From Fimicolochytrium jonesii (lineage: Eukaryota): DNA of 64,000 bases. The notes under the pieces were generated by a model. That model saw nothing but the letters and a program-made list of their open reading frames with translations, made no database searches and had not been told where the DNA came from. A program made the translations under genes and the position numbers. This document shows, piece after piece, positions 5,174 through 45,669 of the stretch. Within the stretch, counting starts at the first letter, position 1, and each line of letters begins with the position of its first letter. The DNA is taken from positions 930,001 through 994,000 of the forward strand of contig NW_026515671.1 of NCBI RefSeq assembly GCF_025526975.1, written 5' to 3'.

Positions 5174-5446
5174 AAGATTACGTACCATTTCGATCTTTTT
5201 TTATTGACATGTGTGACCAGTCTAGATCGTCCAAATATTAACTAATGAATGACGAAACTTACCGAGATTGCTTAGATGACATTTCCCAGAAGCATATGTT
5301 TCGAGAGACATATATACTTCTTTTGAGGTGAGGTGATAAGCGTGTATACAGGCAATAATTTTGGATTTAATTGACGAACGCCTTCAATGCAGGAAGCAAT
5401 ATCCTGACTATTTCGCGAGTGTTAAGTTCAACATTCGGCAGAAAAA

Positions 5447-6196
5447 TGTTATGGACGACGTGCCCATACCATAATCTTACCTACTGAGAGCTGCCATTGT
5501 CAAATGCCAATATCAAACGCCAATGTCAAACGCCAATGTCAATGTCAATGTCAATGTCAATGCCAATGTCAATGCCAATGTCAATGCCACTCCGCCACTC
5601 TTGTAAGAGGAACACACACATTTTGGCTTAGTGGTTAAGACACCTAGCTCTCACCCAGGTGGCGTGGGTTCGATTCCTACCTTCCCCAAACATTTTTCTC
5701 TTCTTTCTGTGACTGTACCACCTCTCCAGGGCGTTCCGAGCAATCGGGACGATTCCCTTGACATCTCTCCTCTCATTTTGCCAATCCTCCCGCAATATCG
5801 CCACTCCTCCTCTCCCCTCTCATTTCGCCAATCCCTCATTCGCCGCTCCTCCTCTACCCTGTCCATCTGTGAGCCAATCTCCGGCCATTTGTCGACCCCC
5901 CCAGTACTTCTCCACAGCCAGCAGCTGTAGCTTCCTCTCTACGCCTGCTACGCTCGCTCTAGGCTAGGGAGCAGAGCTGGCACTCACTAAGTCCCCTCTT
6001 GTTGTTGTCTTTGGTCTGCTGGGTTGTTTATCCATAAATAGCCGCCCCCTCTTTGTCCATTCCCTTCCTCCCCAGCAGATCAACACCAGTTCTTCTCGTC
6101 TCTTGTTCTAGTCCTTGTCTCTTGTTTCGCCAATACAATCTCTTGTCGCCCATCGCTCTCGCCTTGTCTTCCGCCTCAGTCGTCGAGATCGTAACA
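5447..6196 (+). mobile_element. Solo LTR of family A (related to LTRs 28954-29492 and 34457-34994)
   Basis: TGTTA...TAACA termini, 5-bp TSD AAAAA (5442-5446 / 6197-6201), AATGTC microsatellite, colinear with the family A LTRs. Confidence 0.9.
5602..5763 (+). mobile_element. 162-bp TG..CA insert containing a tRNA-Glu(CTC)-derived sequence
   Basis: Absent from the other two family A LTRs; TGT...ACA ends; flanks ACTCT/TCTCT; A box 5624-5634, anticodon arm 5643-5659, B box 5667-5677, T5 run at 5693. Confidence 0.7.
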
Positions 6197-6798
6197 AAAA
6201 AAGCCTTTGTGCAGATATGCGGTAAAGATGCTGCGTCCACTCCTTACGATTTGTCAAATGCTTCTCAACGTGAAGTTGCAGGACTCCGTATCACTGAGCA
6301 TTTGATCCCGAGTTCCCAGTACAGAAGACTTACATCATATCACGACCGAGATTTGATTGAAGCTGTCAGACTGCTGCCTAATCCCGATTTTCAGACAATC
6401 ATAGAAGCTCTGACAGCCATGGATATATTCTAGAAGGGTTTATAGTATCTCACTCTAAAATATATTCCTCCCAATCTTTGCCCTTTATCTGCGTTATCCC
6501 CAGTCGATCCACGCTTTCCTTCGCTCTTCTTTGTATCTCTATCAGCGCTTCATCAGGATCCTTTGACAAGGAGCTATCTTTCTCAAAAGGGACTTTCCTA
6601 GCATCTAAGGATAGCATTTCTAAGCGCTGAAGTAGTAACCTTCCCATTGTTTCTATACAGGAGTCAGGCATACTTAAAACAAGGCTTTTTAAAAACATTC
6701 CTTTCTTACCCTTAAATGTTTTTTCTGACAACGCTAACCGCAAAAATTTGCTTGGAACCTCAGTCAAAACCTCGCGCAAACTCCTATCAAGCGAAGTA

Positions 6799-7073
6799 TG
6801 TAAGGTCAGAGGAAACGTAGACGATATTGGGCCCTTCCGAGAGGGCTGAGAGCAGTGTATTGTAGTGAAGAAAAAAGTAGGAAGCTCTTTGCAGCGGCCG
6901 CTTGACTGACAGCTTTATATATGGGCTGCCAGTGGGGCTTGCGTGGCTTCAGTGAGGCTTGGCGCCTTATGTCATGTATCACCGAGAGCTCGGGTGGCCA
7001 GCCCGGGTCTCGGATCAAGGAGAAGTAAAGAGATATAATATGAAATACAAGTGAAGATGAGATATCACCGACA
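6799..7073 (-). mobile_element. LTR family B, solo copy 1 (truncates the family C 3' LTR)
   Basis: TGT...ACA; near-identical to 17515-17791 and to the reverse complement of 25656-25930 and 36088-36362; no TSD. Confidence 0.9.
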
Positions 7074-7447
7074 CCCGGGGCGCCGCCCGAAGGCTTTTCT
7101 TCCCTTTGGGAGTCACCCCAGAGCGTAGGACTCCAATATAATTTATGCTACACGTGATCTCATGCCCTACACGCTTCCCCGCCCTATGGTGACACCTGCA
7201 GCACCTCATTACAACCCCCTTAGAGCCAAGTGTCACTCCGACACCGACCGCACCTGTCAGTCGCTCCCCGCTGTTACTTGATGTTTAGCTGACACAGGTG
7301 TCGGCCATGAGGAGTGCGCATGGCTCTACTGGAGCGGCTGGCGTCACTGGTGGTCACCACGATGGCAATCAGATCCACGCCGGTATGAGGTAGAGATGGT
7401 TCGGCCGCAGCTGGTCGTGGGGCGCTATGGTCCTTGTCCATGCGGCA

Positions 7448-7455
7448 TATAAAAG
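7448..7455 (+). promoter_or_regulatory. Candidate TATA box of the antisense RING-like gene
   Basis: TATAAAAG 107 nt upstream of ATG 7555, followed by a pyrimidine-rich leader and CACCATGG start context. Confidence 0.55.
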
Positions 7456-7554
7456 GGAGGCAGTAGTCCCCTCAGCACCTTCCCGCCAGTCCTCGGACTT
7501 ACATTTCTTGCTCCCAATCTCGTAACCCCTCACCGTCGCCGTTCCTCTCTCACC

Positions 7555-8313
7555 ATGGCCAGCGTAGCTCCTCCTGCCAAGCCCACCGCCGCCGGCCCGT
7601 CATCGGGCAAGAAGAAAGTAGGCGAGGGCCCCACCAAAGGAGACAGCCTGAAGAAGGCTCTCAAACGACAGCGAGTGGTGAGTCCACGGAGGGCGCCCAA
7701 TTGACCGATCTTACGTGGTTTGACCAATTTTATCTCAGGACGCCACCGAGGTGCACTCGGACAGTGCCCCTGAGCCCCCGGCTCTACCGGCCCGACCTAC
7801 GCGTTGGAACTGCAACACGTACCGCCCCCGCAAGATGTTCCTCTCGGCGTGCCAGCACGTTATATGCCGGCCTTGCATCCTCCCGCTCTGTGATGACACC
7901 GTAAGGAACCGCATGTTATGGGTGGTTCCCGCAAGGTGACTGACAGCTCACATCTCTTCCCAACAGACCAACACGCCCGTCGGGGAGTTCACGTGCGGCT
8001 ACGTTGACGGTTTCGGGGAGGAGTGTGAAGCGCCGCTCTTCTGCCAGGCGCTACCCTGCACCTGTGTGTGGCCCGACTGCGATTGTCTGACCCAGGACGT
8101 GCAGGTCTTCCCCTGCGACCACATCCAGTGTATGGGGCATGTCCGCGCGTAAGTACAACAGTCGTGAACTTTTGACAGGTTCCGATGTTGACTTGACGCG
8201 TTCCCTTTAGCCAGATGAACGTCCAGCAGTTCGTCCCGCTGCGTTGTGGCATGGGGACCGCCTGCCACGGCACACGTTGCCAATGGTCTTTCGCCAAACA
8301 GGCTGGTATTTAG
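7555..8313 (+). CDS. 189-aa Cys-rich tandem RING-like zinc-finger protein, 4 exons (7555-7677, 7739-7900, 7967-8148, 8211-8313), antisense within the chromovirus 3' region
   Basis: Introns of 61, 66 and 62 nt with donors GTGAGT, GTAAGG and GTAAGT and CAG/CAG/TAG acceptors splice into one stop-free ORF; motifs CQHVICRPC and CDHIQCMGH; basic N-terminus. Confidence 0.8.
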
Positions 8314-8404
8314 CCTGGCATCGTCGTTCTTCTTTCTTGTATATATATTTTGTTGAATTTGATCTCTTCGGAGCGTTTCCCTTGGGTACTTCACCGATCG
8401 TCCT

Positions 8405-8710
8405 GAGCCCTGGTGCCTCGCACCCGCTCGCATAGGCCCTGGTACCTCGTACCCGCCCGCATCTTAGGCCTTGGTATTGCATACCCGCCCGCATGAGCCC
8501 CGACACCTCGCTTGCCCGCTCGCATAGGCCCTGGTACCTCGTACCCGCCCGCATCGTAGGCATTGTTATTGCATACCCGCCCGCATGAGCCCTGACACCT
8601 CGCTTGCCCGCTCGCATGGCCCTGGTACCTTGTACCCGCCCGCATCATAGGCCCTGTTACTTCGTACCCGCCTGCATCATAGGCCTTGGTACTAGTACCC
8701 GCCCGCATGA
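8405..8710. repeat. Tandem array of about 10 degenerate ~30-bp units (GGCCCTGGTACCTCGTACCCGCCCGCAT-like)
   Basis: Core CCCGC(C/T)CGCAT recurs every ~28-33 bp between the RING-like gene stop and the end of pol. Confidence 0.9.
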
Positions 8711-11700
8711 GTCCGTAATGGTAATGATCATTTCGGACAGTAGAAACTCTGTTTTGATGTATGTACAAGGTTCCAGATACGTTTACGACGACGAGAGACT
8801 GCCGCTCCTCTTCGCCTTGGTCTCCCAAGTCTCCTGGCGTTTGACGGCTTGCTTTCGGACATATCGCTTGTGGGCCGAGGTGTTACAGACGTGTCGGAGT
8901 GGCTCCCAGTGTTCTGGGACACGTCGAAGCCGGCCCATCTGACCAGGAACATCTCGGTGTTGCGTACCCACTTGGAATCGAGGATGTCTTCAACTCGGTG
9001 TTCGAGTTTGCCGTTGACTTCCTGGGGGGGTGGCGCGTCCACTTTTTGGTATGGGCCGTTCTCCGGAGGGTTGTACCCGCGTAGGATGTTGACATGGAAC
9101 ACCGGGTGTAGTCCACTGAACTCGTGGGAGAGCTCCAGCTTGTAGGTGTCCGGGTGGGGCCCTTTTCCGCTGACGGTGAAGGGCCCGATCCACAGCGCGG
9201 GCAGCTTCTTGTTTCGGGCCGAGATACTCTTGATCTGAATGCCTTCGCGGTTCAGCAGGACCTGGTCGCCTACTACAAACGCATCCGTATTCTTGTTTTT
9301 GTCGTAGTATCTTGCCTGCCTGTCCTGGGCCTCTCGGAGTCTGTGCTGAACAATGCGGCTCACCTCGGTCAGTTGCTGCATGCGCTCCTCAATGCACTTT
9401 CGATCGGCCTGTTTCAGTTGCTCTGTTGGGTCGCTGGTACCCCATTGGTCTGGTACCTTTGGGATGTACCCGATGTCGATCTCGTACGGTGACATGCCCG
9501 TGGAGGTCTGGGACGTCCTGTTGTAGGTGTACTCAAGGAGGGAAGCATCTCGCGCCAGTTCGAGCCGGTGTAGTTCAGGTAGGGGACCATCATCTTCTTG
9601 ATTGTCTTGATGACATTCTCCGTCTTGCCGTCGGTCTGTTGGTGTCGTTCCGACGAGAGTTCCTGCTCTACGCCGGCGCACTTCAGGAGGTTCTTCCAAA
9701 AGGCGCCGGTCCATTGGTGTCCCAATCGCTGATGATCGTGTGGGGCATGCCCGTGATGCGGAAGGCCTGGTCAAAGAACAGCTGGGCGAGTTCCTTTGCC
9801 GTTGCCTTGGCATGGGTCTCGAGGAGGATTACGCGGCTGGATAAGTAGTCCACCAGGATGAGGACGGCTCCCTTGTCCATGACGGACTCGTCTCCCGCTT
9901 CGCCCCCCTTAGATTTTGTCATGGGGAAGTAGATGTCCAAGCCGACGCAACGCCAGCGCTCGTCGGGGACCGGAATGCTGCGTAGGAGCCCGAAGTTGGA
10001 AGCCTGCTTGTTGCGTTGGCAGTCGGGACAAGTCCGGACGTACTGGTGGACCTCGCGCTTGAGGAGGGGCCAGTAGTAGAGCGCGAGGAGTTTGGCGCCG
10101 GTGCGCTGGACACCTGAGTGGCCGCCGTTGGCCAGGGAGTCATGATAGAACCTGAGGAGGGGGCCCCGAAGGCCCTCGGGGACGGAGCAGCGGCCATGCT
10201 ACAAAACAAAGCCGCGGTCGTCACGCGTGAGGCGGCGCGCAAAACCCGAGAGGGTAGAGGGGTCATCAGGGTTTGTCATGGTGGTCTGCAGGTGGGCGAG
10301 GGTGTCCTTGCAGAACATGTCATCGCCAAGTGCAGTGAGCCACTTGGTGTCGGTAGGGAGGCGGCCGGTGATGTCCGGTAGAGGTGTCCCGGTGACAATG
10401 GAGAACACTTCGACGTTCATCTGACAGCTGGCGCACTTCGGGGCGTACCGTGGTGTGCGGCTGAGTATGTCGGCGATGTGATTGAACTCGCCGGGGAGGT
10501 ATTCGATAGTGAAGTCGTAGTCCTGAAGGAACTCCACCCATCCGGCCTGGCGCCGGGAGAGATGAGGCTGATTCTGGAGGTATATGAGGGATTCATGGTC
10601 GACGAATGCACGGAATTGGCGACCGATGAGGTGATGGCGGTTAGCGCGGATCACTTTGTTCAACGCGAGGAGCTCCTGTTAGTGCACCGGGTATCGGGTG
10701 TCGGCCGGAGCCATTTTGCGTGAGTAATATGAGATGACGCGGAGGCGCGGAAGGTTATTGGGGCCCTTTTTCATGGTGGGCAGTGGGTTCAGCATGGGAA
10801 AGTCGCCGTCCGTGCCCTGACGATCCAGCCATGAGAAGACGTAGGGGAACTTATCGGGGTCGAAGAACGCCCGGCAAGGGGCATCGGCGACGAGCGCCTT
10901 GATGGTGTTGAAGGCTGCTTGTTCCTTGGCGCCCACTGCCACGGGCGGGTGCCGGATTGAAGGTTGGTCAGTGGGAGGGCTGTGTCAGTATAATGCGGAA
11001 TGTATTCCTTGACATAGTTGACTAGCCCCATGAAGGAGAGGAGCTCGAGGGCGCTGGTGGGTTCGGGTCGAGCGCGGACAGCCTTGACCTTGAACGGGGC
11101 GATGGAAAGGCCATCCTTACCCACCATGTGCCCGCAGAACTGACCTGGTCCACTGCCCACTGACATTTGGATGGTTTACCGTGAAGGCCGTGAGCCGAGA
11201 GGGTCTTGAGCACATCAGTGACATGCCCGATGTGGGTCCATGTCGGTGCTGAAAATAAGGATGTCATCGAGGTAAGAGATGAGGTATGAATCGTACTTGT
11301 CACCCAGGAGTTTGTTCATGAGGCGTTGGAACGTCGCGGGGGCGTTCGTCAGCCCGAAGGGCAGTACGTTGTACTGGAAGTGGCCGAAGCGCGTCTGGAA
11401 GGCAGTCTTCTCATGGTCTTCCTCCCGCATGAGGATGCAGTGGTAGGCATCGCGGATGTCGATAGCGGTGAAGACCTTCATGCCGACGAGGCGGTCCCGA
11501 AGGTCGTTGAGGTTTGGGAGGGGCGTGGCGTCCTTATGGGTCATCTTGTTGAGGGCCCCGGTAGTCGATGCAGCAGCGGAGGCCACCGTCCTTCTTTGGG
11601 GCAAACAGTATGGGTGCCCCCCAGGGGCTCTTAAAGTGGGAGATCCACCCGCGGGATGATAGGCGCTCGAGTTGCTGCCGTAGCTCGTCGAGTTCGTCGG

Positions 11701-14605
11701 GGGTCAAGTGGCGGAGTGGGAGCATGACAGGCTTGGAGCCGGGCTTCAAGTTGATGCTGAAGTTGTCGTCGTCGCGGTCCGGCGGGAGGCCGGTCTGTTC
11801 GGTGAAGAGGGTATCTGTAAACTGTTCCAACGGGCGAAGAGGGTGGTCGGGGGCGACCGATGCGAGTGGATCCCCCGGGTGGTATCGGAGGGGTGTCCGT
11901 TGCCTTTCGGTCCGCAATGATCGCACATTTCTTTGCCTCGACCGTGCGAACGAAGTTAGCCTCTGCTTCGGCGACGTCCGTGAGGGTGTCGTCTGTGGCC
12001 AGGTCCACCTCCGTGTCTGTGCGTGAGACCCATGCGGTATAGACCTCGGTGGCCTTATTCCTCTTGATTCCTCGCTTGAATTGTTTGGCCGTGAGGAAGC
12101 CCTCCTCATTTAAGGCCGCGCGCTTTGGGTAGAAACGGCGGGGGTGAGGGCCCGTATGAGGTTCGAGTAACCGGGCCGCGCAAGCGCTGGGTTGTTGCCA
12201 TCGGCGGGTGGTAGGTTTAGCTCGGAAAGTTAGTACGGTTGCGTTAGCCTCAATTGAAGCGCCGGGAACCCATTGTCGCGCCATAAGCGTATGAGGTCAA
12301 GGTCCAAGATGTAGGGTAGCCCTAGGATAACATCCGCGCGGATCGGGGCCACGACAAACGGGACCCGAGGGGTCTTATGAGGTATTCATTCCTCCGTGAA
12401 GACGGAGAGGTTGGCACAAATCATCCGCGTGGTGCCGTATGATCCGGCTTTGTCACCCCAGCGCACCTCAAGGGGCATGGGACAGTCGTACGTGTTAAGA
12501 TCATGGCGTTGGGCAAATGAGTCGCTAATGAGCATGGTATTGCAACCAGTGTCTATGAGGGTGCGGCAGAAGATGCCGCCGACACGTCCATGGACCTTGA
12601 ACGTGAGCTTGTCGATGATGGGGGTGGGGCGGTATTCCGGAATGGTGTCCTGCAGTCGGGGTCCGGTAGGTCCCTCGGGTTATCTGGACGCTGAGGCGCT
12701 GCAGGCGGTCAGGCCCTGGGCAGAAAATCCTGACTGTCGATGGAGTATGCGCGGCTCGGGGGCTTCCGCGGCCAAATGAAACTTGTCGTTGTCATCATTG
12801 AAGGCCTTGGCGGGCGCCGCCGAGATCTTGAGTCGTCCGGGTTCTTAGGGCACGCCCGGGCGTAGTGGTCCTTGCTGCCGCAAGTGTGACATTCGCCTCG
12901 CTGAGTTTTCCTCTCCTTCCCAAGGGGTACTCGGTTGGAGTTGAAGGTGGGGGGCGTATCGCGCTTGTCGCAAGCCTGGCCGGAGTGGCCGTTCCGGGTT
13001 GGACCCGTTTGCCGTCTCCGAAATGTGGGCAATCCCGTCGGCATAACCCCCGATGCGGAAGGCCCTCTGGGCGGCTCCCTGAAGGGTCTTGATGGGGATG
13101 TCTTCGTCCTCATTGCCCTGTTGTAGGATGAACTGGTAGCACTGCTCACGGATGCGACGTCCGACCTGGTGGAAGGTCAGCCCGTTCAGGAAGTACTCAC
13201 GTTCCTGTCGCGGAGTGAGATGAGATGTTCCTTTTTGGGGAGGATAACGATCTGTGTGGTCAGTACGTTGAAGGCCGGAACGTAGTCGGACATGCTGTCT
13301 TTGAACTTCAGGGCGGCCAGTTTCGCCTCGACCGAATTACGGAGGTTGGCGGTGGGGTAGAACCTGCGCCTGAGTGCCTTCAGGAACCGTTCCTGGGTGG
13401 CGGAAGGCTCTCCGGAGCGAGCCTCGAGCTTCCACCACTCAGCGGCGTCTCCCAACAAGTGGGCTACGAAGTGTTTCACATCCCCGTCCTCTGTTCTGAA
13501 TTCGGTAACTTCCAGATAGCGTAGGTGGGCGTCGACGAACTCGTCCAGTTTGGCGACCATGTCTTTACCATTAGCCTTACCGTCAAACTTGGTCAGCATC
13601 TTAGCCAAGGTGGTTCGGAACTCCTTCTCGGTGGCCGCCTTGCGCTTACGCTCTTCGCTAGCCGCCAAATGGTCCTCGCGGCTAACCCGTACTCCAGCGA
13701 AGGGGCTGTCATCTGGGCAGTCCCTCTCCAGGCGCTCGAATTGCTGCTGGAGTTGGGCGTTGGTGTTGGCCAGCTGGGCTAGGATTTGGAGGATTGTTGC
13801 CTGTCCGTTCTCTTGTCGGGCTGGGGTACGGCTCGTGCGCCGCATGGGGGAGCGGCTTCGGGTCCTCGCCGGGGAGCGGCTGCGGTAGCGGCTTACTCAG
13901 CGGCTCCTTCGACGGGGGGGGAGATGCTCCTGCGACTCGTCGTCCGCGCCTGTATCGCTCTGGCGTCCGATTCTGGCGTCGAGGGTCCGGGCTTCGACGT
14001 CGACAAGGTGAGCGTGAGCTGGAGTGCCTCCTTCCAGGTGGCGACCACGGGGGTGACCCCCTGCGCCTGTGCAAGGGGCGGTTACGCTCTGCGGGGCCGT
14101 TGCCTTGGCGTTGGTCGCTGTCGAGCCGTTGCGCCCTTCGATGCGGGTGTTCAAATGGATCAAGCTTTAAGCGGTCATTGTTAACTATCGCAGAGCTGAC
14201 GGCGGTATTAGCACCCGCCTGAGAGTTGCTCATCGTAGGTTGCCGGAGAGATCTTTAAGGATGGTGCTACCATGTAATAATGCTAGGTCCGTTGCCAGAG
14301 GCTAGCTCTGTCTCCGCTCGATGTATTGAAAGAATTCTAGAGTTTCTACCTCCGGGACGCCGCCCGAAGGCTTTTCTTCCCTTCGGGAGTCACCCCAGAG
14401 CGTAGGACTCCAATATAATCTATGCTACCCGTGATCTCATGCCCTACGCGCTTCCCGCTCTAAGGTGACACTGCAGCACCTCATTACACACTCGCTGTCG
14501 CTTGAGAGCCTTCTTTAGGCTGTCCCCTTTGTGTGTTTGAGGCAAAGGTGTCCCTAAGCGGACGTCGTGTGTGATGTGTGATGTGACACTTCGCTCTAAG
14601 GGGGG

Positions 14606-14825
14606 TGTAATGAGATGCTGCAGGTGTCACCTTAGTGCGGGGAAGCGCGTAGGGCATGAGATCACGGGTAGCATAGATTATATTGGAGTCCTACGCTCTG
14701 GGGTGACTCCTGAAGGGAAAGAAAAGCCTTTGGGCGGCGCCCCAGGAGGTAGAAACTCTAGAATTCTTTCAATACATCGAGCGGAGACAGAGCTAGCCTC
14801 TGGCAACGGACCTAGCATTATTACA
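14606..14825 (+). mobile_element. Family C 3' LTR of a second, oppositely oriented copy
   Basis: TGTAAT...ATTACA, reverse complement of 14273-14488, preceded by PPT CTAAGGGGGG. Confidence 0.9.
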
Positions 14826-15257
14826 TCTGAGCTGCTTCAGATGGACACAGATAGCATGTATATGGCGCTTGCCGGTGACACCATTGATTCCCTGGTGAGG
14901 CCAGAACTCAAGGAGCAGTTTCTACAGGAACGCGGGTTTATGGTTGGTTGCCGATGGGGATGAATACAACGAGAAGACCCGGGGCTATTCAAGATAGAGT
15001 TCACCGGGACAGCGCTGATTGCCCTGGCACCCAAGATGTACTTTGTGGTTGGAGATGAAGAGCAGTTCCTACGGAGCAAGAAGCGCAGCAAGGTGAGCTG
15101 CAAGGGGACCAATAAGAAACAGAATGTCGATCTTCTGACCTACGACAATTTCAAAAAAGTATTGGATGGACAAATCAAGAAAGAGTTCATACAAATGGTC
15201 AACAAAGGTTTTAGATGTTACAGGACGCAGTTGTACCAATATGAAACAACGGCGTGA
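14826..15257 (+). pseudogene. C-terminal fragment of a protein-primed-type family B DNA polymerase (Maverick/Polinton-like)
   Basis: LLQMDTDSMYMAL (motif C), PGLFKIEF, ALIALAPKMY, KVSCKG, LTYDNFKKVL across frameshifts; intronless; cut by an LTR. Confidence 0.8.
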
Positions 15258-23958: not shown

Positions 23959-25160
23959 CTACTCCGCGGAAGTCTCCGTCCAAGAACTAAGCTTCCACGG
24001 CTTGAAAGGGTTGTCGACGGAGTTCACAGAAGAGGCCAGCTCTGGGAAGTGCCGTGAGATCAACCCCTTGAAGTTGCCCTGTGTCTCGATGTACTTGATA
24101 CCCTCCGCGGTGTATATCTCGGGTTTGTAGTCGTCAGTCAAGAAACGATCCGTGAACAATCGCCGGGAAGCCATGAGGATGAAGATGTGGAACGCCGTGT
24201 CACCGAACCCGTAACCGTCTGGTCTCGGCTCCTCTGCCAGTGTGCCGACGAGGAGGTCGACGTCTTCGGGAACTCGGTAAACGGACTGCAGGAGGGCTTG
24301 GACCTTCTTGTCCGGGTTGATGTCCGCGAAGGTCTTGAAGTCTGGTTTGAGCCCGATCTCGCGATGGACTGAGGGTATTTCAAAAAATCAAGATGATTCG
24401 AGACGTTAGTTCCGGGCCGGAAAGAGCTATTAGCTTTCAAGCTACTTTCTTACATTGCAAGTATCGGGGTATTCCACGCTCGCGATCGCGGTAGATTTCG
24501 GTGGTCGCCATATCGATGATATAGGGTTCATTTGGCTTGGTAAGATTCATCAACCACGCCTGAGGGAAGGAAATTTACAATCCATGGCTGGGGTTTGCCG
24601 TTCCGCCTGGTGACCACCCCAATAGGTGGCTCCCGACGGAACGGCTTCGCGGGCAAAACCGCGCACGCATATATTAGCAACACCGCATATACATACATCC
24701 ATCGCAAACAAGGGAGGGTGGGTAGCTGATTGAATTGCTATCTGCGTTGCTTTTCCAGTGAGGAGGAAAGAAAAGAACGAACTTGAAGGCCTTTAGATAC
24801 TACGGCCGTGCCAGCAACACAAATGGGTCACGTGGCTCCACGTGCACCCCACTTTCTGGGCATTGCCCATTACGATTGTCAACATCGGAAAGTTGCAATT
24901 TTCATCGTTGTTTGTTCACTCACCGGGTAGATGTTGCGCGGAAGAGCACCGGGATTAGCTGTCCCAAACTTGTAAACAACATTGGCCAGCTTATTTTCGG
25001 CGATCATTCGGCGGCCTCCTTTGAGAGTGATTGACGGCAAATCGTACACACGACCGGACAACTTCTTGGATTGCGCATCCCGAATCTCGATTGTATCGGG
25101 TGTCAATGAATGCAGACAGTAGACAGCGGTGAATTCCTCCGTCAGTGAGAAGGGCTGCAT
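23959..25160 (-). pseudogene. Alpha-dioxygenase-like haem peroxidase (peroxidase-cyclooxygenase superfamily), 5'-truncated pseudogene
   Basis: PFSLTEEFTAVYCLHSL, NIYP|AWLMNL across intron 24923-24560, EIYRDRERGIPRY, DVDLLVGTLAE, FILMASRRLFTDRF, NPFKPW. Confidence 0.85.
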
Positions 25161-25655: not shown

Positions 25656-27637
25656 TGTTGGGGATATCTCATCTTCACTTGTATTTCATATTATACCTCT
25701 TTACTTCTACTTCATCCGAGACCCGGGCTGGCCACCCGAGCTCTCGGTGATACATTACATAAGGCGCCAAGCCTCATTGAAGCCACGCAAGCCCCACTGG
25801 CAGCCCATATATAAAGCGGTCAGTCGAGCGGCCGCTGCGAAGAGCTTCTTACTTTTTTCTTCACTACAATACACTGCTCTCAGCCCTCTCGGAAGGGCCC
25901 AATATCGTCTATGTTTCCTCTGACGTTACATGGTAGCACCACCTACCGCTAGCATCACCAAGAGATTCCTCGTCAACGTCGCCCCTCTACCGGACGTCGC
26001 CCTTACACTCGTTCACAAGCAAGAATGGACCACCAAACTCAAGCTATCGTTGCGGCTGTCGCAGCTGCTTTCGCTTCTTGGGGGCGTGCTGTTACGCAAG
26101 ACACCCAACAAGCCGAGCGTTTCAGACTTCTTATGGACGCTCGCAAGAACAAGCTTGTCGAATACGATCGCGCCAAAGCTGCCAAAGAGATCGAAGAGTT
26201 TGTTACGTCTCACATCAACTCCCTCGAGTCTCTCACTGTCCCGGCTGTACAAGCTGGACCAGACGGTACTGGAACTGCCACTGCCATAGCCTTTAATATG
26301 GCAGAGTACGCTCCTACGCTCACTACCTACCTCAAGGGTACTGCTCTTGAGTGGTACAATACAACTTACGCCGCCGGCGCTCCCGTGAGTTGGACAGCTT
26401 TTCAAACGGCTCTTGTCGCTCACTTTTATCCACGCAACTTGCGTAATACTATTGAGCTCAAGCTTTCTGGCCTCAAGCTTGGTGACTCTCTCGAAAAATA
26501 TATCAAGGAGTTTCAAGACACCAATAATGAGCTCGAAGCCGCTCATTGTCTCGATAACACTCAAGGCACCACTCCCCTTATCGATCAGATTCGATACTTC
26601 AAGGCCGGTCTGCTCAAGAATACAGTAATCAGTCATTATCTCGCTGAAGCCGTTACGACCTTCGAAGTCACGAGCACTACCAACATCAACACCCCTATCA
26701 CGCTCGATCAAGCTATCACTGCAGCGCGTCGTGCTCATGTGGCTCATGGGTTCACTGACGGCTACCAAGCCAATACACCTCGTCCGATGTCCTTGGCAAC
26801 AAGTTCTCGTGACGGCCGTGGAGCCAGTTGCGGTCGAGGTAGTCGTGGCGGTGGTCGTGGTGGACGATACGCCCCTTACACCAATCCTCGAATTACGGAA
26901 TTTGAGCAAGACTTAGATGATATGACCTTTGGGCTCAATGCCCTTGGTACGTCATACTATCCCCCTGGAGTGAGTCGTATCACTACAGGTCAAGTTCCCT
27001 ACCAACGTCAACAGCCCTTTCGCCGACGTGGACACTGGCAAGCTACTCACGGTCCTCGTCAACGTCCAACGACTCCCTGTCCCCTTTGTAACAAAATGGG
27101 ACATTGGAGAGTTGAATGCTGGTCAAATCCCGAAAAATTGACAGCAAGGCTCGCAAACCCAGAAGCGACGCGGTGGTCTTCGACAGTGCGGTTGTGGCGC
27201 TCAAACTCCGCAGCCCAGTTGCCAACCTAATCAACAACAAGGTTCAGCCAATCAGGTTGATGCTGGGTCATGCATTACGGAAATTCTTGATGACGCCGTC
27301 AACTCAGCGAATACTACGAATACTACTAAAAATCAAGCTTCGAGTTTTTTCCAAGGTCGATAGAGCCCCTCGTTAGCTCTGCTCGGCCTACCACATACGA
27401 TCCTACCAATAAACCTGCCTTCGAACCACTGTCTGCTGGACTCAGGGTCTCTCATTGTCGCATCGGAAACAAGTTTACTCGTGTTCTTTTTGATAGCGGC
27501 GCTACTGGGTTATTCCTTGACAAGACATTCGTCGAAAAGCACAAATTTCCCAAGAAACGTATCGAACCGAAGCAGATATGGCTGGCCAACAAAGAATCAT
27601 ACATGATTCTCGACACAGTTGTTTCGGAAAAGTTAGA
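25656..27637 (+). mobile_element. 5' half of family B gypsy element: LTR 25656-25930, PBS, gag 26025-27230, protease
   Basis: TGTTG...TTACA then PBS TGGTAGCACCA; CPLCNKMGHWRVEC knuckle; VLFDSGAT. Confidence 0.9.
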
Positions 27638-28953
27638 TTTCCCCTTTGCTCGTTGAAAGAATTGTCAGATCATCAACGTAGACGGCAATGATGATAAAAC
27701 CTCGGCCAATGCGCTTTATGTAAAGAGCATAGTCTGGTTTGGAAACGTTGAAGCCTTTTTCTCGGAGGTAAGCGTCCAACACCTTATTCCATAACTGAGG
27801 TGACTGTTTCAGCCCGTATAGGGAACGTTTGAGTTTCACTGTTGTCCCGTCTGGTAGGCGAAGGTATTTTACGGTGTCAAGGTTCCCATTCAGGAATGCG
27901 GCCTTTACATCCATCTGATGGATCTCCAAGTCGTGTGACGCTGCGATGGCTAACAACATCCGCAACGTATTAAACTTCACGACGGGCGCAAACGTTTGGT
28001 GGTAATCTATTCCCTCTCTTTGCGTAAATCCTCTGGCTACTAAACGTGCCTTGAACTGCTTGATAGAATTGTCAGGATTGCGCTTTACTTTAAAGACCCA
28101 TTTGGAATCTACTGTGTGTCCAGTGTTTTTCTGATCAGACGATTCCCAAGTTCCGTTCTTTGCGTGAGAGGCAAGTTCTTCTTCCATAGCGGCTTGCCAT
28201 TCGCGTGAGTATGGGGATTTCATAGCGGCTTGCAGTGTGGTGGGTTTATCTGTGTCCACCGTAGCTACCAGGAGTTCCGCTCCTGTGTACTGACCACCGT
28301 CGTCTTCGGCCCCCAAAAACTCAGATAACGCTACTGCGTCTTTTACAAATTCGTAGGGTTCCATGTGGGGTCGTCAAAACCTTCCCACTTGACGAGGTAC
28401 TCCTTCTCCCCCAAATCTCCATCTCCACTCGATAAGAGTATTTTCTCAATGGCGTATTCTGCAGGGTCTTCTGATCCAGGAGCGACGGATTCGCTACGAC
28501 TGTTTTCTTTGTTGAAGGTTACATCCTGAGACTCAAATATCTCGAGCATATCTTCATCAATGAGACGATAAGTGTCATGTTTAGTGGCATGATACCCAAG
28601 TAAACGCAACGGACCTAGTGCCCAGGCGAAAGTTTACTTCTCCTCTTCTGTTTAGGGATGTGGAGGAACGCCTCACTCAACGGTGTCCGCAAAGTCAATA
28701 TATCCGCTGATTTCCCATACCATTTGTGGTATGGAGTTGTGCCAGTAGCACTGGCCGGTGTCCTTTGTCTGAGGTAATTCACCAAAACGGCAAATTCATT
28801 CCAAAGGTTTTCTGGCACGTTACTCATCCACATTATGGTGCGAACTTGATCCATAACTGTTCGATTGAACCGTTCCGCAATACCATTTTGTTGGGAGGAG
28901 TACGGCTGTGTCCGGACTAGCGAAATCCCGGCTTCTTTGAGTTCATCCAGCAT
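27638..28953 (-). mobile_element. Ty1/copia pol fragment: integrase - chromodomain - RT
   Basis: PYSSQQNGIAERFNRT integrase; WVFKVK..KARLVARGFTQ, HQMDVKAAFLNG, SLYGLKQSP, VYVDD RT; INT precedes RT (copia order). Confidence 0.92.
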
Positions 28954-31900
28954 TGTTATGGACAACGCGCCCATACCATAAGCTTACCTACTGACAGCCG
29001 CCAATGTCAACCGCCAAATGTCAAACGCCAATGTCAATGTCAATGTCAGTGTCAATGTCAGTGTCAATGCCAATGTCAATGCCACTCCCCCTCTCTCCTC
29101 TCATTTCGCCAATCCTCTTGCAATATCGCCACTCCTCCTCTCTCCTCTCATTTCGCCAATCCCCCCCTTGGCTTCTCCACACCCCCCACTGCTTCCCCAT
29201 AGCCAGCAGCTGTAGCAATGCTCTCTACGCTCGCCACGCACGCTCTAGGAGCATAGCTGGCGCCCCCCAGTCCCCTGTTGTTGTTGTTGTTCTCTGATCT
29301 GCTGGGTTGCCTATCTATAAATAGCCGGCCTCTCTTCGTCCATTCCCTTCCTCCCCAGCAGATCAACACCAGTTCTTCTCATCTCCTGTTCTAGTCCTTG
29401 TTTATTGTTTCGCCAATACAATCTCTTGTCGCCTGTCACACTCGCCCTGTCTTCTCTACTTCGCTTCCGCCCCCATTGTCGAGATCATAACAGTTTGATC
29501 TGCTCCAACACTGCGAAGTTCAGAACCTGTCCAGCCCTGCATCCGACAAACCTTTTTCGCCATGTCCCAACCCGAATCCGTACCTTTCACCGCCAAGCAA
29601 TGGAACGATATGTGCCAAGCCATCGCCGCCTTGCAAAGCCAAAACGCCAACTTGCAGGCCAACCTAGCGCAAGCCCAAGCCGACGCACAAGCTGCCCAGA
29701 GCATCGCCGCCCAGGTTCAAGCCGATACGTACACCCGTCCCCAAGTCGCCAACCCTGCTCTGGAGCCAAGAATCAGCTCGCCCGAGAAGTTTGATGGTAC
29801 CCGCAGCAAATTCCGTGGGTGGTTGAACAACATCCAGTTGATGTTTGCTCTCCAGCCCGACCGCTACCCCAGCGACATCATCAAGATCCAAACTATTGGC
29901 ACCTACCTCACCGGCACTGCGCAAGCCTGGATGGCGCCCCTAGTCGAACGCCAAGATCACAGCCTTCAGGACTTCAATAGTTTTATCAGTCAGATGCAAT
30001 CGGTCTTCGGAGACAGCGACAGGGTCCGCACCTCTGAAAACAAGCTCCAGAACCTTCGCCAAACCCGTGCAGCAACCGAGTACGTCGCTGAGTTCCGCCA
30101 GCTACAATGCGATGTCTCCTGGAACGACCAGGCCCTGATTGCTACCTTCCGCCGTGGCCTCAAAGAGGACGTCAAGGACCTGATGCTCACAATGCCCCCT
30201 GCTGTCCACCATTGATATGGTGATGGAGCAGGCTATCCAGTGCGATAACCGGCTGTTTGAGCGCCGCCTGGAGCGAAACAGAAGCCGCCAGACCTTCCTG
30301 GTTCCCCACACCTCAGTTTACTACTACCACCACTGTCGACCACAGCGAGCCTATGCAGATTGACGCCGCTCGTCCCCGCGGCCCTCTGAGCCCTCAGGAA
30401 CGCCAACGCCGCATTTCCAACAACCTCTGCCTTTACTGCGGTGGCGCGGGGCACATTGCAAAAGTCTGCCCCGTCAAGAACAAGACCACCACCCGTGCCG
30501 CCAATGTCGACATGAAAGAACCCTCCACCGAACAGGGTTTTCCCAAAGTCCAGCCGCAGTAAAGCCCCAGCGACTGGACAACACACACCGCCCCGGGCCT
30601 CCTAACCTCGCAGCTCCTGCAACGGGAGAGGCCACCCCCCTGGTTCCCGACTCCGTTATAGCTGACACAACCCTCCTAGCCGCTGCCCATGTCGAAAACT
30701 CCGAAATTAACCCCCGCGCCATGCTTGCGCTGGGTCCCATCGAACCCTTCAACTACCCCGTTACCATCATGGTATCATCCAGCCGCGCCCCGATACCTAC
30801 CTCAGCCATGATCGACAACGGTGCCCTGTCCTGCTTCATCGACAGAGACTTTGCCCGCAAACACCGCATCGCCCTAGTCCCGCATCAGCGTCCACTGACG
30901 ATCGAACTCGTTGACTGTCAACCCAGCTCTGCTGGGCCAATCACCCATCACACCCAACCAGTAGGCATGTGGGTCGACGACCACTTCGAAGAACTCGTCT
31001 TCCATGTCACCAAATCACCCCATGCTCCAATCCTCCTTGGTCTTCCCTGGCTCCGCCTCCACGACATTAACCTTGACTTCAAGAACCTTTCGGTCGGTTT
31101 CCGTTGCGACTGTCTGTACCATGAATTCGCGAATTGGGACAACTCTCCAGCACCCCTGAGCCCAGCACCCGCCAGAACCCCCGAGCCCTTGATCCGCATC
31201 CCCCAGGATGAAGTCCCCGTCGACGAAACATGGTCGATTCCAGTACCCAAGGTATCTCGCTCCAGCACCCCAGAACCGGCTCCCACGCCGCTCCGAGTCT
31301 CGTTCATCTCCGCCCCAGCCTTCCAGGTCGCAGCAAGGCATGACCAGGTCTTTGTTGCCTACGCCAACCCTGCGAAACCCGATCTCCCAGCCTCGCCTAG
31401 CCCCAGTAACCCCCCGACACCCGAGAAAGACATCAAAGACTTCCTGCCCCCCGAGTATCAGACTTCGCCGACGTTTCGAAAAGAGAAATGCTGACACTCT
31501 CCCCGAGCACCGGCCCTACGACTGTCCAATCGATCTGGAAGAAGGCAAGCAGCCACCTTTCGGCCCGATCTACAGCCTCAGCGAACCAGAAATGAAGGCA
31601 CTCTGCGAATACCTCGAAGAAAACCTCGCCAAAGGATTCATCCAACCCTCAAAGTCCCCTGCCGGTGCGCCAGTCTTATTCGTGAAAAAAAGGACGGTTC
31701 TCTCCCCCTCTGCGTGGATTATCGAGGCCTGAACAGCATCACGGTGAAGAATCGCTACCCCCTGCCCCTGATCAACGGTATCATGGATCGTCTGCGCGGT
31801 GCCCGCCGTCTCACCAAGATCGACCTCCGCGGTGCTTATAACCTCTTATGCATGCGCCCGGGCGATGAATGGAAGACCGCCTTCCGCTGCCGCTATGGCC

Positions 31901-34900
31901 TATTCGAATACAACGTCATGCCCTTTGGACTCAGCAATGCTCCTGGCGTTTTCCAGTACCTGATGAACAACATCTTCCGCGACATTCTCGATGTGTTTCT
32001 TGTTGTCTACCTTGATGATATCCTGATATTCTCCAAGAACCCCGAAGATCTCCCCAAGCATGTCCGCGAAGTCTTGTCCCGCCTCCGCCAGCATGGGTTG
32101 TACGCCAAACCAGAGAAGTGCGAATTCAACCGCAAATCCGTCGAGTTCCTAGGCTTCATCATCTGCGAGAAAGGCATCCAGATGGACCCCAAGAAGATCG
32201 CTGCCATTACGGATTGGGAGCCTCCCAAGAATGTCAACGGCGTCCAGCGTTTCCTCGGCTTTGCCAACTTTTATCGCCGATTCATCCAAGGTTACTCCAA
32301 GATTGCTACCTCGCTCACAGCCCTGACCCGGAAAGACATCCCGTACGCCTGGACACCCGCCGCAAACACCGCCTTTGAGAACCTGAAGAAAGCATTCACC
32401 ACCGCCCCCATCCTTGCTCACCCTGACCCAGAGAAGCCCTTCGTCGTCGAAACGGACGCCTCCGACTTCGCTCTTGGCGCAGTTCTCCTCCAACCTGACC
32501 AGGACAATCAGCTCCACCCCGTGGCCTTCCACTCTCGCAAATTCACGGCCAAAGAGATCAACTACGAGATCTACAACAAGGAACTTCTGGCCATCCAAGA
32601 CTCCTTTGCCCAGTGGCGACACCATCTCATTGGCGCCCGTCACAAGATCACCGTTTACTCCGACCATAAAAACCTTCAGTACTTCATGACCACCCGCACC
32701 CTGAACCGCCGCCAAGCCCGCTGGTCGATATTCTTCTCGGATCTTTGACTTTGTCATTACCTATCGCCCCGGTTCCCAGCAGCACCAAGCCGATGCCCTC
32801 TCCCGACGCTCCGAACATGAGCTAAAAAATGGGGAAGAAGCGTTCCGCTCCCAGGCAACCACAATTTTGACTCCCGAATGCCTTCGACTCGCCGCGGCCT
32901 GCCTCACACCCATGGATACCATGCTTCTTGACATGATTAAGGCTGCCCAGGCCTCTGATCCCCTCGCTAAGGCCATCCGCGAAGAGCTCAAGATACCCCT
33001 CGCCCAACGGACTGACGAAACCCAAGATCGTATCAAACGGTTCTCAGATGAAGAAGGAATCCTGCTGCACGATAACCTTGTCTATGTCCCCACCAACAAG
33101 CTCCGAGCTGAAGTCTGCCATGACATGCACGATACACCCCTAGCCGGCCACTTTGGGATGTCCAAGACGCTCGAACTCGCCTCCCGCAACTACTGGTGGC
33201 CCAGCCAGTGGCGCTTCGTCAAGGCTTACGTCAAGTCCTGCGATACCTGTAGCCAAGCGAAATCCAGTCGACACAAACCATATGGCCTACTCCAGCCCAA
33301 CAGTATCCCTACCCGCCCTTGGGGATCTTGGTCCCTGGACTTTATCACCGGTCTGCCTCCCGTGGACGGGTACAACTCCATCCTGAACGTCAACTCTTGC
33401 CTCACCAAGATGGCCCACTTCGTTGCCTGCAGCGAGTCAGAATCTGCCGAATCCACCGCCGACCTAGTCTTCCACAACATCATCCGTCTCCACGGCCTCC
33501 CCAACGACGTCATCTCTGACCGAGGACCCCAGTTTAAGTCCCGGTTCTGGCGTCGACTTCTCAAACTCCTTGGGGCAAAAGCCAACCTCTCCTCGGCCTT
33601 CCACCCCCAGAGCGATGGCCAGACGGAACGCACCAACCAGATCCTGGAGCAGTATCTCCGATGCTTTTGCAACCACCAACAGGACAACTGGAAACAGCTT
33701 CTGTCGTCCGCCGAGTTCGCCTACAACAACACCCACCAGTCCGCCTCCCAGACCACCCCCTTCTACGCCAACAAGGGTCTCCACCCCCGCTTCAGTTTCG
33801 CGGCCTCCGCTACCTCCGAATCCGTCAACCCCGCCGCTGAAGCCCGCGCTAAACAAATCAGGGAAGTCCATGAACTGCTCGCCTTCGAGCTCAAGGAAGC
33901 CCAAGATCAAATGAGGCGCTACGGCGACGCTAGACGAATTCCTGGACCGGACTTCAAGCCTGGCGACCACGTCTGGCTCCTCCGCAAAAACCTCTAGACA
34001 ACCCGGCCCTCTCAGAAACTCGACCATCGCAAGATTGGGCCATTCCCCATCGTTGAAAAAATCAATCCCGTCGCCTACCAGCTCAAGCTCCCGCCTACGT
34101 ACAAAATCCACGATGTCTTCCATGTCTCGCTCCTCGAACCCCGCTTCACCATCCCCAAACGACACGAACCCGAACCCGCGCCCCCAGAGACCGTTGAGGG
34201 TCAAGAAGAGTGGGTTGTCGAAGCCATCCTTGACTCTCGCATCCATTGTCGTCGCCTTCAGTACTTGGTCAAATGGCAGGGCTGGCCTGACTCCGAGAAC
34301 ACCTGGGAGCCCGTGGAACACCTCACCCATACCGATGCACTCCTCCAGGACTTCCACAGCGCGTACCCCAACAAGCCTTCCTCTGTCCCTGTAGCACCTC
34401 CTCTGCGGCCACACCAACCTCGACGCCGCCGCCGCCGCCGCTAAAGAGAGGGGTGATGTTATGGACGACGGGCCCATACCATAAGCTTACCTACTGACAG
34501 CCGCCAATGTCAACCGCCAAATGCCAAACGCCCATGTCAATGTCAATGTCAGTGTCAATGTCAGTGTCAATGTCAATGTCAATGCCACTCCCCCTCTCTC
34601 CTCTCATTTCGCCAATCCTCTTGCAATATCGCCACTCCTCCTCTCTCCTCTCATTTCGCCAATCCCCCCTTGGCTTCTCCACACCCCCCACTGCTTCCCC
34701 ATAGCCAGCAGCTGTAGCAATGCTCTCTACGCTCGCCACGCACGCTCTAGGAGCATAGCTGGCGCCCCCCAGTCCACTCTTGTTGTTGTTGTTCTCTGAT
34801 CTGCTGGGTTGCCTATGTATAAATAGCCGGCCCCTCTTCGTCCATTCCCTTCCTCCCCAGCAGATCAACACCAGTTCTTCTCATCTCCTGTTCTAGTCCT

Positions 34901-34994
34901 TGTTTCTTGTTTCGCCAATACAATCTCTTGTCGCCTATCACACTCGCCCTGTCTTCTCTACTTCGCTCCCGCCCCCGTCGTCGAGATCATAACA
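28954..34994 (+). mobile_element. Full-length Tf1/sushi-like gypsy chromovirus, family A (LTRs 28954-29492 and 34457-34994), with several frameshifts and stops
   Basis: ~539-bp LTRs differing at roughly 15 sites; [81 protein letters not shown]. Confidence 0.96.
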
Positions 34995-36362
34995 ATTTGG
35001 AAGCAATATCTCAACTACAACGTAAGCAATTGGAAGAAACTATTGCCTTTAATCGAATTCGCATACAACACTGCTCGGAGGGAGGAATATGAAGGTTTAT
35101 CGCCATTCGAAGTAGATCACGGACGCTCTCCAATCCTCCCGGGTTGGAATCCAACACTCAAAGGACAAGAACTCAAACTTCGAGCTGTAGATCGAAACGA
35201 AATCGAACTCTTCAAGAAAGGGCAGGAAGATATTGCCCGGATCGTATGCGAACACCTTCAGAGGTCGCAAGATCAATTTGCACGTCAACACAACAAAGGT
35301 CGAACGCCAATCGCATACAGAATTGGCGACCTCGTCAATTTAAATCGACAAGGAATCAACCTAGAAGTAGACGCTCGAAGCGGACTTTGATACTCAGCTA
35401 CGTGGATCGAACCATTCAAAATCATCGCACAAGGAGCACATCCTGATACCTACAAACTCGATTTATCACCATCGAAGATCAGCGGCATCTGGCCCGTCTT
35501 TCACGTCGATATTTTACGACCACATCGCGAAGAGCAATATCCGCAACATACAGTTCCACAACCTCCTCCACCAGTCGAAGAACGCGGACAACCCAAATGG
35601 GTTGTAGAAGACATCATCGACGAGGGATGCGCCGTACGAAATCTTCTAGTCAAATGGCTCGGTTATCCTGACCCTACTTGGGAATGCGAATCAGCACTTC
35701 GCTCCACGCCTGCCTACAAACGATGGCGAAAAGCTCACCCACAATCTTTGTGGATACGGAAACGTACAGCATAGAGCATCTCATATCACATCACACGCGC
35801 GACGCCGCAAGAACCGCTCACTATCAATCACACCGCTGACAATAGCGACGTAAACTACATCACATCACGCGCGGCGACGCAAGAACCGACCTTACACACA
35901 CACATCACACACGATGTCGGCTTAGGGACGCCTCTGCCTCGAACACACACATCACACAGTGCGTCAACACTATAAAATGAACAAGTGCCTCAACACTTTA
36001 AAATGAACATGAGCTCTCCCTTTCTTCACATATCCCTTGTAGTTCACCTCTTATTTATTCGGCGCCCTCCTCAGGATCCGAGGGAGGTGTAGGGGATATC
36101 TCATCTTCACTTGTATTTCATATTATATCTCTTTACTTCTACTTGACCCGAGACCCGGGCTGGCCACCCGAGCTCTCGGTGATACATGACATAAGGCGCC
36201 AAGCCTCACTGAAGCCACGCAAGGCCCACTGGCACCCCATATATAGTGCTGTCAGTCGAGCGGCCGCTGCGAAAAGCTTCTCACTTTTTTCTTCACTACA
36301 ATACACTGCTCTCAGCCCTGTCGGAAGGGCCCAATATCGTCTACCTTTCCTCTGTTGTTACA
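34995..36362 (+). mobile_element. 3' part of family B gypsy element: integrase end, chromodomain, 3' UTR, PPT, LTR 36088-36362
   Basis: LPLIEFAYNT, WPVFHVDIL, WVVEDIID..LVKWLGYPDPTWE; PPT GAGGGAGG directly before the LTR. Confidence 0.88.
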
Positions 36363-45026: not shown

Positions 45027-45669
45027 CGTGAGGTTCTTCCAGTACGCAACCCCGTTTGATGACAACCCACATTGCGACAGCACTGACTGCCACACCGCAA
45101 GCCAAGGCGACAAACGGCGCTGAGCAGCGAGCAGATCCCTTTCCTAAAAGGGAGTTTGTACGGGAATGTCCATGCGCCTTGCACCTCTTGGGTTTGCAGA
45201 TGTCACGGAAAAAGCTGCGGGGGACTGTTAAGAGTTTCGGTTAGATGAGGTGTGACGTGCTGGCTTACGCATCTCCGAAAAAGTCGCCTTTCACGCGTGT
45301 GTTTCGCGTTTCCGCTGGTCCTTCCCACTTTGGTCTTCTCACAACCTTCGCAATAGATCGGGGGCGTGCTAGGTCAGCTGCTGCAGCGGCGGCATCCTCC
45401 TTGATCGGATATAGTCCGAGTGCTCTCCTCAGATCTTTCTACAATTATAATACAAGTCCACCATTATACAAACATGCGTTTACTGTCCGGCATTGTCTTT
45501 GGAAAACTGGACACGACACAACACACGTTACGTCCTGCGAGCGACACACATACAAATACACAACGTATGTCAGAAGAGCCACGAGAGACGATAAAGGAAT
45601 CTCCTTCGATGCTGATTAGGTTCTCAGGATATGTAGTACTTCCTTCACTGTCCTTCCTGCTTTGACGAT

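Follow-up and report, generated by a model that had tools for sequence, protein, structure and literature searches.

Antisense genes located between pol and the 3' LTR are already known in LTR retrotransposons (Boty brtn, Grande gene23, Retand), and their function is hard to address because most of their products resemble nothing. The window analysed here, a 64,000-nt stretch of the Fimicolochytrium jonesii genome (contig NW_026515671.1, positions 930,001 to 994,000), contains a broken chromovirus of a family named C below, with a candidate gene of this kind on the opposite strand. This locus raises three questions: whether the gene is real, what its product might do, and whether it belongs to the element, to a virus or to the host.

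A spliced gene antisense to a family C chromovirus

A first reading made from the letters alone (hereafter the sequence-only reading) had placed here a TATA box, a start codon and three GT-AG introns of 61-66 nt, giving one ORF of 189 aa, and this structure was borne out (Table 1). The ATG at 7555 (+), in the context CACCATGG, opens four exons whose 189 codons are closed by a TAG at 8311-8313 (+). The three introns are all of the GT..AG type, and each contains TTGAC/CTGAC branch-like words. A simple intron pattern picked out five introns on the + strand of the 64 kb, three of them being those of this gene, and three introns were obtained in only 1 of 3000 Markov resamples of 7448-8313. Their sizes are in the same class as those of the first two introns of the host RasGAP gene (69 and 64 nt).

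Codon-use scores were calculated in the six frames: each exon taken separately was best in the frame required by the model (4/4), and the total score of the exons was reached by none of 2000 base shuffles. GC3 was 0.76 in the model frame, versus 0.62 and 0.54 in the other frames. Alternative splice choices lead to longer open frames, up to 227 aa; the 189-aa model was preferred because homologues match exon 4 (17/34 identical residues). A chance ORF and a host gene lying outside the element were both rejected, given the codon signal, the homologues and the element sequence that flanks the gene on both sides. No Rfam match was found at E≤0.1. As judged from sequence, a real spliced protein-coding gene inside the element is confirmed.

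Table 1. Positions of the antisense gene, its carrier element and adjoining sequences in the window.
Feature	Position	Strand	Remarks
Family D solo LTR	6799..7073	-	cuts family C 3' LTR; matching target-site duplication absent
3' LTR remnant	7074..7213	-	93.5% identical to 5' LTR; starts at 7213
Short polypurine tract (PPT)	7214..7221	-	precedes 3' LTR
TATA-like box	7448..7454	+	TATAAAA, 107 nt 5' of ATG; putative promoter element
Exon 1, codons 1-41	7555..7677	+	basic, low-complexity, NLS-like clusters; 8/41 identities to P0059
Intron 1, 61 nt	7678..7738	+	GTGAGT..CAG; 25-aa insertion here in P0054
Exon 2, codons 42-95	7739..7900	+	unit 1 ligand positions R63, C66, C79, H81, C84, C87; Pfam zf-RING_5 E 2.7e-4, under cut-off; 26/54 identities to P0059
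Intron 2, 66 nt	7901..7966	+	GTAAGG..CAG; in-frame TGA inside; 25-aa insertion here in P0054
Exon 3	7967..8148	+	C105, C115 end unit 1; C128, C133, C145, H147, C150, H153 begin unit 2; 8/8 ligand residues retained in P0059, 19/60 identities
Intron 3, 62 nt	8149..8210	+	GTAAGT..TAG; P0054 terminates exactly at this border
Exon 4 and stop	8211..8313	+	C168, C174, H175, C179, 4/4 retained in P0059; 17/34 identities
T-rich and TATATA stretch	8327..8362	+	3' of stop; possible 3'-end signal, judged from sequence
Tandem array	8407..8708	.	units of 31-32 nt, higher order of 92 nt; separates converging ends of pol and gene
Broken gag-pol, family C	8783..14254	-	Pfam: capsid, CCHC, RT, RNase H, integrase, SH3, chromodomain
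Primer-binding site	14260..14272	-	begins TGGTAGCA
5' LTR	14273..14488	-	TG..CA
Second, 43-nt copy of exon 1 end	14489..14531	-	rearranged neighbouring family C copy
3' LTR of neighbouring, plus-oriented family C copy	14606..14825	+

The carrier element is a chromovirus both by its domains, with Pfam RVT_1, RT_RNaseH, Integrase_H2C2, SH3_Tf2-1 and Chromo found in this order, and by its ends, with TG..CA LTRs, a primer-binding site and a PPT, the 3' LTR being truncated at 7074. The primer-binding site is presumably of the tRNA-iMet type. Over the 1187 codons that align to P0004, pol has accumulated 13 lesions (3 stops and 10 frameshifts). The gene is bordered by the pol end (8783) and the array on one side, and by the PPT and the 3' LTR start (7213) on the other. 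With the pol end, PPT and LTR mapped, the antisense placement read from the letters alone holds; in being coding, antisense and located between pol and PPT/3' LTR, the gene resembles the antisense accessory genes of the aORF-3R kind.

Relatives of the element were searched with its integrase. Among 48 matches to the integrase tail, the best four are a metagenome pol (56% identity) and three Powellomyces hirtus proteins (45-61%); the remaining 44 are at most 36% identical. A tree of the integrase tail unites these four with families C and D in a single supported clade (99/96). On this basis the host is probably a chytrid of the Spizellomycetales. The 366-aa integrase frame had no relative at 1e-20 in a word-index protein search. 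No locus came out of metagenomes scanned with exact 23-mers or by aligning the integrase, and nothing was found when viral contigs were scanned with the integrase.

Two RING-like units of unequal strength

Residues 1-45 of the protein are basic (net charge +6) and hold the NLS-like clusters, and the protein is predicted to be nuclear. Unit 1 has 7 of the 8 RING ligands in the present copy, and 8/8 in P0054, P0055 and P0059. The ligand pattern of unit 1 in the homologues is C-x2-C, C-x-H, C-x2-C, C-x4-C; the present copy has a 5-residue insertion in the last pair relative to them. The C-x4-C last pair of the homologues resembles that of RBR RING1. Unit 2 has ten conserved Cys/His, and its outer pairs are non-canonical.

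Pfam zf-RING_5 matches 6 of the 8 alignment members, all under the cut-off (best 23 bits, for a cut-off of 27.9). Using an HMM built from 102 viral RING-HC domains, unit 1 scored above 997/1000 shuffles and unit 2 above 968/1000; for P0059, the same HMM placed unit 1 above 987/1000 shuffles and unit 2 above 992/1000. Unit 2 of our protein is thus weaker than unit 1, its score being reached by 32/1000 shuffles (8/1000 for the homologue). When the two units were aligned directly, 770/5000 shuffles were as good, so that an internal duplication is without support.

The structure model of P0055 has a mean pLDDT of 39.5, with about 55 in unit 1, where values run from 50 to 70, and values below 50 in unit 2. 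The top structural matches of its unit 1 are RING entries (VIA Z 6.2, rmsd 2.3 over 59 residues), obtained from this low-confidence model and with a Z below 8, which may be chance. Structural neighbours of unit 1 include FANCL-type, SP-RING and RBR RING1 entries. Foldseek with the P0055 model returned nothing at E≤0.001, the best match, a RING entry, being at E 0.22. The single-sequence fold of the spliced protein (P0001) was uninformative (pLDDT 36), and single-sequence PDB searches gave chance matches only. With the alignment profile A5, the best PDB match was the PCGF5 RING (E 0.013); matches of this profile on the window itself are circular. The tandem RING-like protein of the sequence-only reading is therefore kept in part: unit 1 is RING-like by its ligand order, RING entries heading the structural lists of a low-confidence model; unit 2 is weaker, and Pfam scores stay under the cut-off. 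The same reading had found Arg in place of the first expected Cys, which is right (R63); a Cys occupies this position in all five homologues.

Does the product look like an E3 ligase? In PMC8261083 and PMC6487577, an aliphatic residue before ligand 2 and a linchpin Arg after the last ligand serve as criteria for E3 activity, and the former uses these two features to argue against such activity. The aliphatic position is occupied by N65 in unit 1 and by D132 or D134 in unit 2, and the linchpin position by E116 in unit 1 and by H175 or Q180 in unit 2. In unit 1 of the homologues, checked in P0054, P0055 and P0059, these positions hold K and G, respectively. Pfam detects no IBR and no catalytic RING2 pattern. 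The proposal that the gene encodes an E3-like anti-silencing factor is weakened, and stays unproven, since neither unit has either of two hallmarks usual in E3 ligases.

Homologues in Powellomyces and the MELD virus record

Exons 2-3, with intron 2 read through, were used as the phmmer query against 1.84 billion proteins. There were four matches at E≤0.001, three homologues and one unrelated repeat protein. The latter, a bacterial protein with Ig repeats (P0057, E 7e-4), was discarded. The best match is DAC81638.1 (P0054), the "oncoid" of Powellomyces chytrid fungus MELD virus 1 (42% identity, E 6e-19), annotated as a 197-aa protein in a record of 21,205 nt. The remaining homologues, cluster members included, are hypothetical proteins from four contigs of P. 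hirtus (KAI8911323, KAI8921334/5, KAI8903067 and KAI8904226), where the same sequence occurs in one case under two adjacent locus tags. P0055, P0058 and P0059 are 91-94% identical to one another and the oncoid is 52-53% identical to those three. Such dispersed, near-identical copies in P. hirtus are the pattern expected from a mobile element.

The alignment of the spliced model with P0059 covers residues 35-185 (44% identity over 151 aa, E 1.6e-45) and spans all four exons. From residue 60 on, 17 of the 21 Cys/His are retained in P0059, the exceptions being C92, C121, C126 and C135. The alignments also bear on the introns. In the oncoid, 25 extra residues are present exactly at intron 1 and again at intron 2, and its C-terminus falls at the intron 3 border; the partial P0058 stops at the border of exon 2. 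Intron positions appear to be common to the homologues, and the published oncoid DAC81638.1 appears to be an unspliced reading of a three-intron gene.

Further searches gave no additional relative: a word-index protein search with exon 3 found no candidate among longer proteins, scans of viral contigs with the spliced protein P0001 and with P0054 found none, and neither did tblastn on phages. In PMC8502044, oncoids are defined by short motifs, and those of MELD viruses and adintoviruses by LxCxE or a related Rb motif beside CxxC. LxCxE is present in none of P0054, P0055, P0056, P0059 and P0001, so that these five proteins lack the LxCxE part of the motif definition of a MELD/adintovirus Oncoid.

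Other copies of the gene and traces of selection

The second copy of the exon 1 end (Table 1) is antisense to the neighbouring family C LTR, like the main copy. Its three differences from exon 1 are all synonymous (3/3, neutral p 0.015-0.045). Promoter and start are both absent from this fragment, which is joined to 56 nt of a family D 3' region and is therefore a rearranged relic. It is part of a 118-nt mosaic (14489-14605) placed between two inverted family C LTRs and made, in this order, of 43 nt of exon 1, 56 nt of inverted family D 3' region (35895-35949) and PPT-proximal family C sequence. The break in this mosaic falls exactly at the exon 1 splice donor.

Contigs of 151 nt from two metagenome runs, X1 and X2, are about 94-99% identical to the array, to the pol tail and, within the gene region, to 7803-7951, 7994-8143 and 8264-8416; they have a depth of 2, may contain errors, and together cover exons 2-4, array and pol tail. 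A deletion of 1 nt at 7915, in intron 2, occurs in one X1 contig. In one contig of X2 the array is 183 nt shorter, and this contig continues to 8745. In exon 3, 4/4 listed differences of the X1 contig are non-synonymous, compared to 6/9 in pol (Fisher p 0.50). The X1 and X2 contigs give no sign of purifying selection, and their pattern is as expected after post-insertion decay. Six X1 contigs at ≥90% identity fall within 7803-9183 (1.4 kb) and almost none over the remaining gag-pol. This clustering may be explained by a selection effect of the run, or by deleted elements retaining their 3' part. The end of an X1 contig one base before codon 63 was set aside, most such contigs having clipped ends.

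Given the lesion rate of pol, a clean frame of 189 codons has P=0.13, and the initial caution that an intact gene beside a broken gag-pol is too short to prove selection was well founded. Ligands are retained across species at 44% identity, and the synonymous differences of the 43-nt fragment (3/3) stand against the non-synonymous ones of X1 (4/4). Codon use of the gene leans toward the element, by 0.084 bits per codon, which is within the 0-0.13 range of gag-pol pieces, and its score is above 15 of 16 host windows. This element-like codon use lends weak support to a long residence in the element. In the sister family D of the window, pol and LTR are only about 310 nt apart, and tblastn with the protein found no match there.

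Role and origin of the gene

We lean slightly towards an accessory gene long carried by a chytrid chromovirus lineage, whose product, with two RING-like units and a predicted nuclear location, would bind ubiquitin or chromatin factors of the host as an adaptor or decoy and not be a self-sufficient E3. Introns antisense to the genomic RNA of a retroelement escape splicing during retrotransposition. In the scheme that we propose, the LTR promoter would make genomic RNA on the minus strand, in which the antisense introns would stay unspliced and so survive reverse transcription. From an internal TATA promoter near the PPT, a convergent mRNA would be transcribed, which would be spliced and would end close to the tandem array. 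The protein might then help the element to escape or tune host control, which is the weakest step. The present gene copy is probably a relic, because ligand 1 is lost and the element is dead. The lack of the gene in family D counts against this accessory gene reading, and the viral annotation of the best match makes a viral source fit as well.

According to such a viral scenario, an accessory gene of a Polinton-like MELD virus was captured by the element, or by a narrow subfamily, while nested in viral DNA, the retrotransposon being a passenger carrier. The gap in family D would fit. A broken frame with a DTDS motif (14829-15254, +) also lies directly beside the plus-oriented LTR of the neighbouring family C copy, and we take it to resemble a family B DNA polymerase of the Polinton/MELD type. 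This reading of the frame found no support in Pfam, PHROGs, PDB or viral contigs. The top match is the oncoid of MELD virus 1 (E 6e-19), and a single Powellomyces dataset yielded six assembled MELD genomes (PMC8502044); yet the legend of Fig. 5 in that paper describes one element with Gag and retropepsin genes, so that the virus record may hold an LTR element. The "oncoid" label itself is based on short motifs, LxCxE is found in 0/5 proteins checked, and codon use fits the element. Viral capture is in our opinion unlikely. We would give a little more credit, tentatively, to a double-RING gene family shared by chytrid LTR retrotransposons and Polinton-like dsDNA viruses, a mobile module for host manipulation whose introns are kept antisense; if this were true, both parasites would get the same handle on host ubiquitin or chromatin machinery.

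The other two readings concern the activity of the product and a host source. That the element-borne gene encodes an active RING or RBR-RING1-like E3 ligase, ubiquitinating a host silencing factor, would agree with the full set of eight unit 1 ligands in the homologues, with structural neighbours of the FANCL, SP-RING and RBR RING1 types and with the planarian Burro elements, for which PMC6431247 reports RING and ubiquitination-linked domains. The missing aliphatic residue and linchpin Arg, and the failure of Pfam to find IBR or a catalytic RING2, make this distinctly improbable. Least probable of all is a small chytrid host gene family, one member of which was captured once, antisense, by the present copy and then decayed neutrally. 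RasGAP-like intron sizes, the neutral look of the exon 3 differences and the non-significant intactness (P=0.13) would be accounted for, but the neighbouring copy has a second fragment with synonymous differences, gene, array and pol adjoin in X2 as they do here, the array differing in length, and the phmmer homologues are near-identical dispersed copies in one species plus a virus record, with no broad chytrid orthologue.

Comparison with known systems

In Botrytis cinerea, the chromodomain Ty3/gypsy elements called Boty-like (BcGypsy1) carry the antisense gene brtn (PMC7264820, PMC8365987, PMC4227169, available parts). As in the window, a fungal chromovirus carries an extra antisense gene in the pol-3' LTR interval; the Botrytis host is an ascomycete and not a chytrid, and those parts report no RING domain for brtn. 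Plant aORF-3R genes include Grande gene23, RIRE2 and the Retand TRP28 ORFs (PMC7264820, PMC11963269). Their products are TRP28 or without known domain, not RING. Retand belongs to a non-chromovirus plant lineage with 3' regions of 2.9-6.6 kb, versus 1.6 kb in the family C element, and the word "intron" is absent from the Retand paper (PMC11963269). In planarian Burro Ty3 elements, the RING-related domains are found in the sense polyprotein, as opposed to an antisense gene here (PMC6431247).

The oncoid DAC81638.1 is a true homologue with the same ligands, and with insertions or its end at the three intron positions; it differs in being annotated as an unspliced viral oncogene-like ORF, whereas the window gene is spliced and inside an LTR element. 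With RING-HC and RBR RING1 domains, the protein shares a C-x-H-x2-C-x2-C core and eight ligand positions, but it has two units in 180-190 aa and lacks IBR, the E2-contact aliphatic residue and the linchpin. In the literature covered, mostly outside subscription journals and including available parts of PMC3248453, PMC2864245 and PMC9289625, no RING-type antisense gene was found in a fungal LTR element. The novelty lies in a product with RING-like units in tandem and in its connection with the record of a Polinton-like virus.

PMC7264820 asks that antisense and spliced transcripts be looked for. The product of the window gene can tentatively be placed in a fold class, a chytrid that grows in culture has intact homologues, and intron positions are apparently conserved, so that the function of the gene is testable. 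As for the oncoid, its apparent unspliced reading would either correct an annotation or show gene traffic between a retrotransposon and a Polinton-like virus.

Other elements and host genes in the window

The family D chromovirus occupies 25656-36362, with LTRs at 25656-25930 and 36088-36362 and the same TGGTAGCA primer-binding site, and is interrupted by a copia fragment nested in it and by a family B element. Its pol tail has a GC3 of 0.40, versus 0.75 in family C. The family B chromovirus (28954-34999, +) has LTRs that are 97% identical, broken frames and no extra 3' region; a solo LTR related to it lies at 5446-6197. Among host sequences, a frame at 43731-45143 (-) matches the first OB-fold of Shieldin SHLD2 (E 6.7e-8, above cut-off), a fold that, to our knowledge, would not be expected in fungi. 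Finally, a fragment of an animal haem peroxidase domain (23959-24387, -, E 8e-17) lies inside the repeat cluster.
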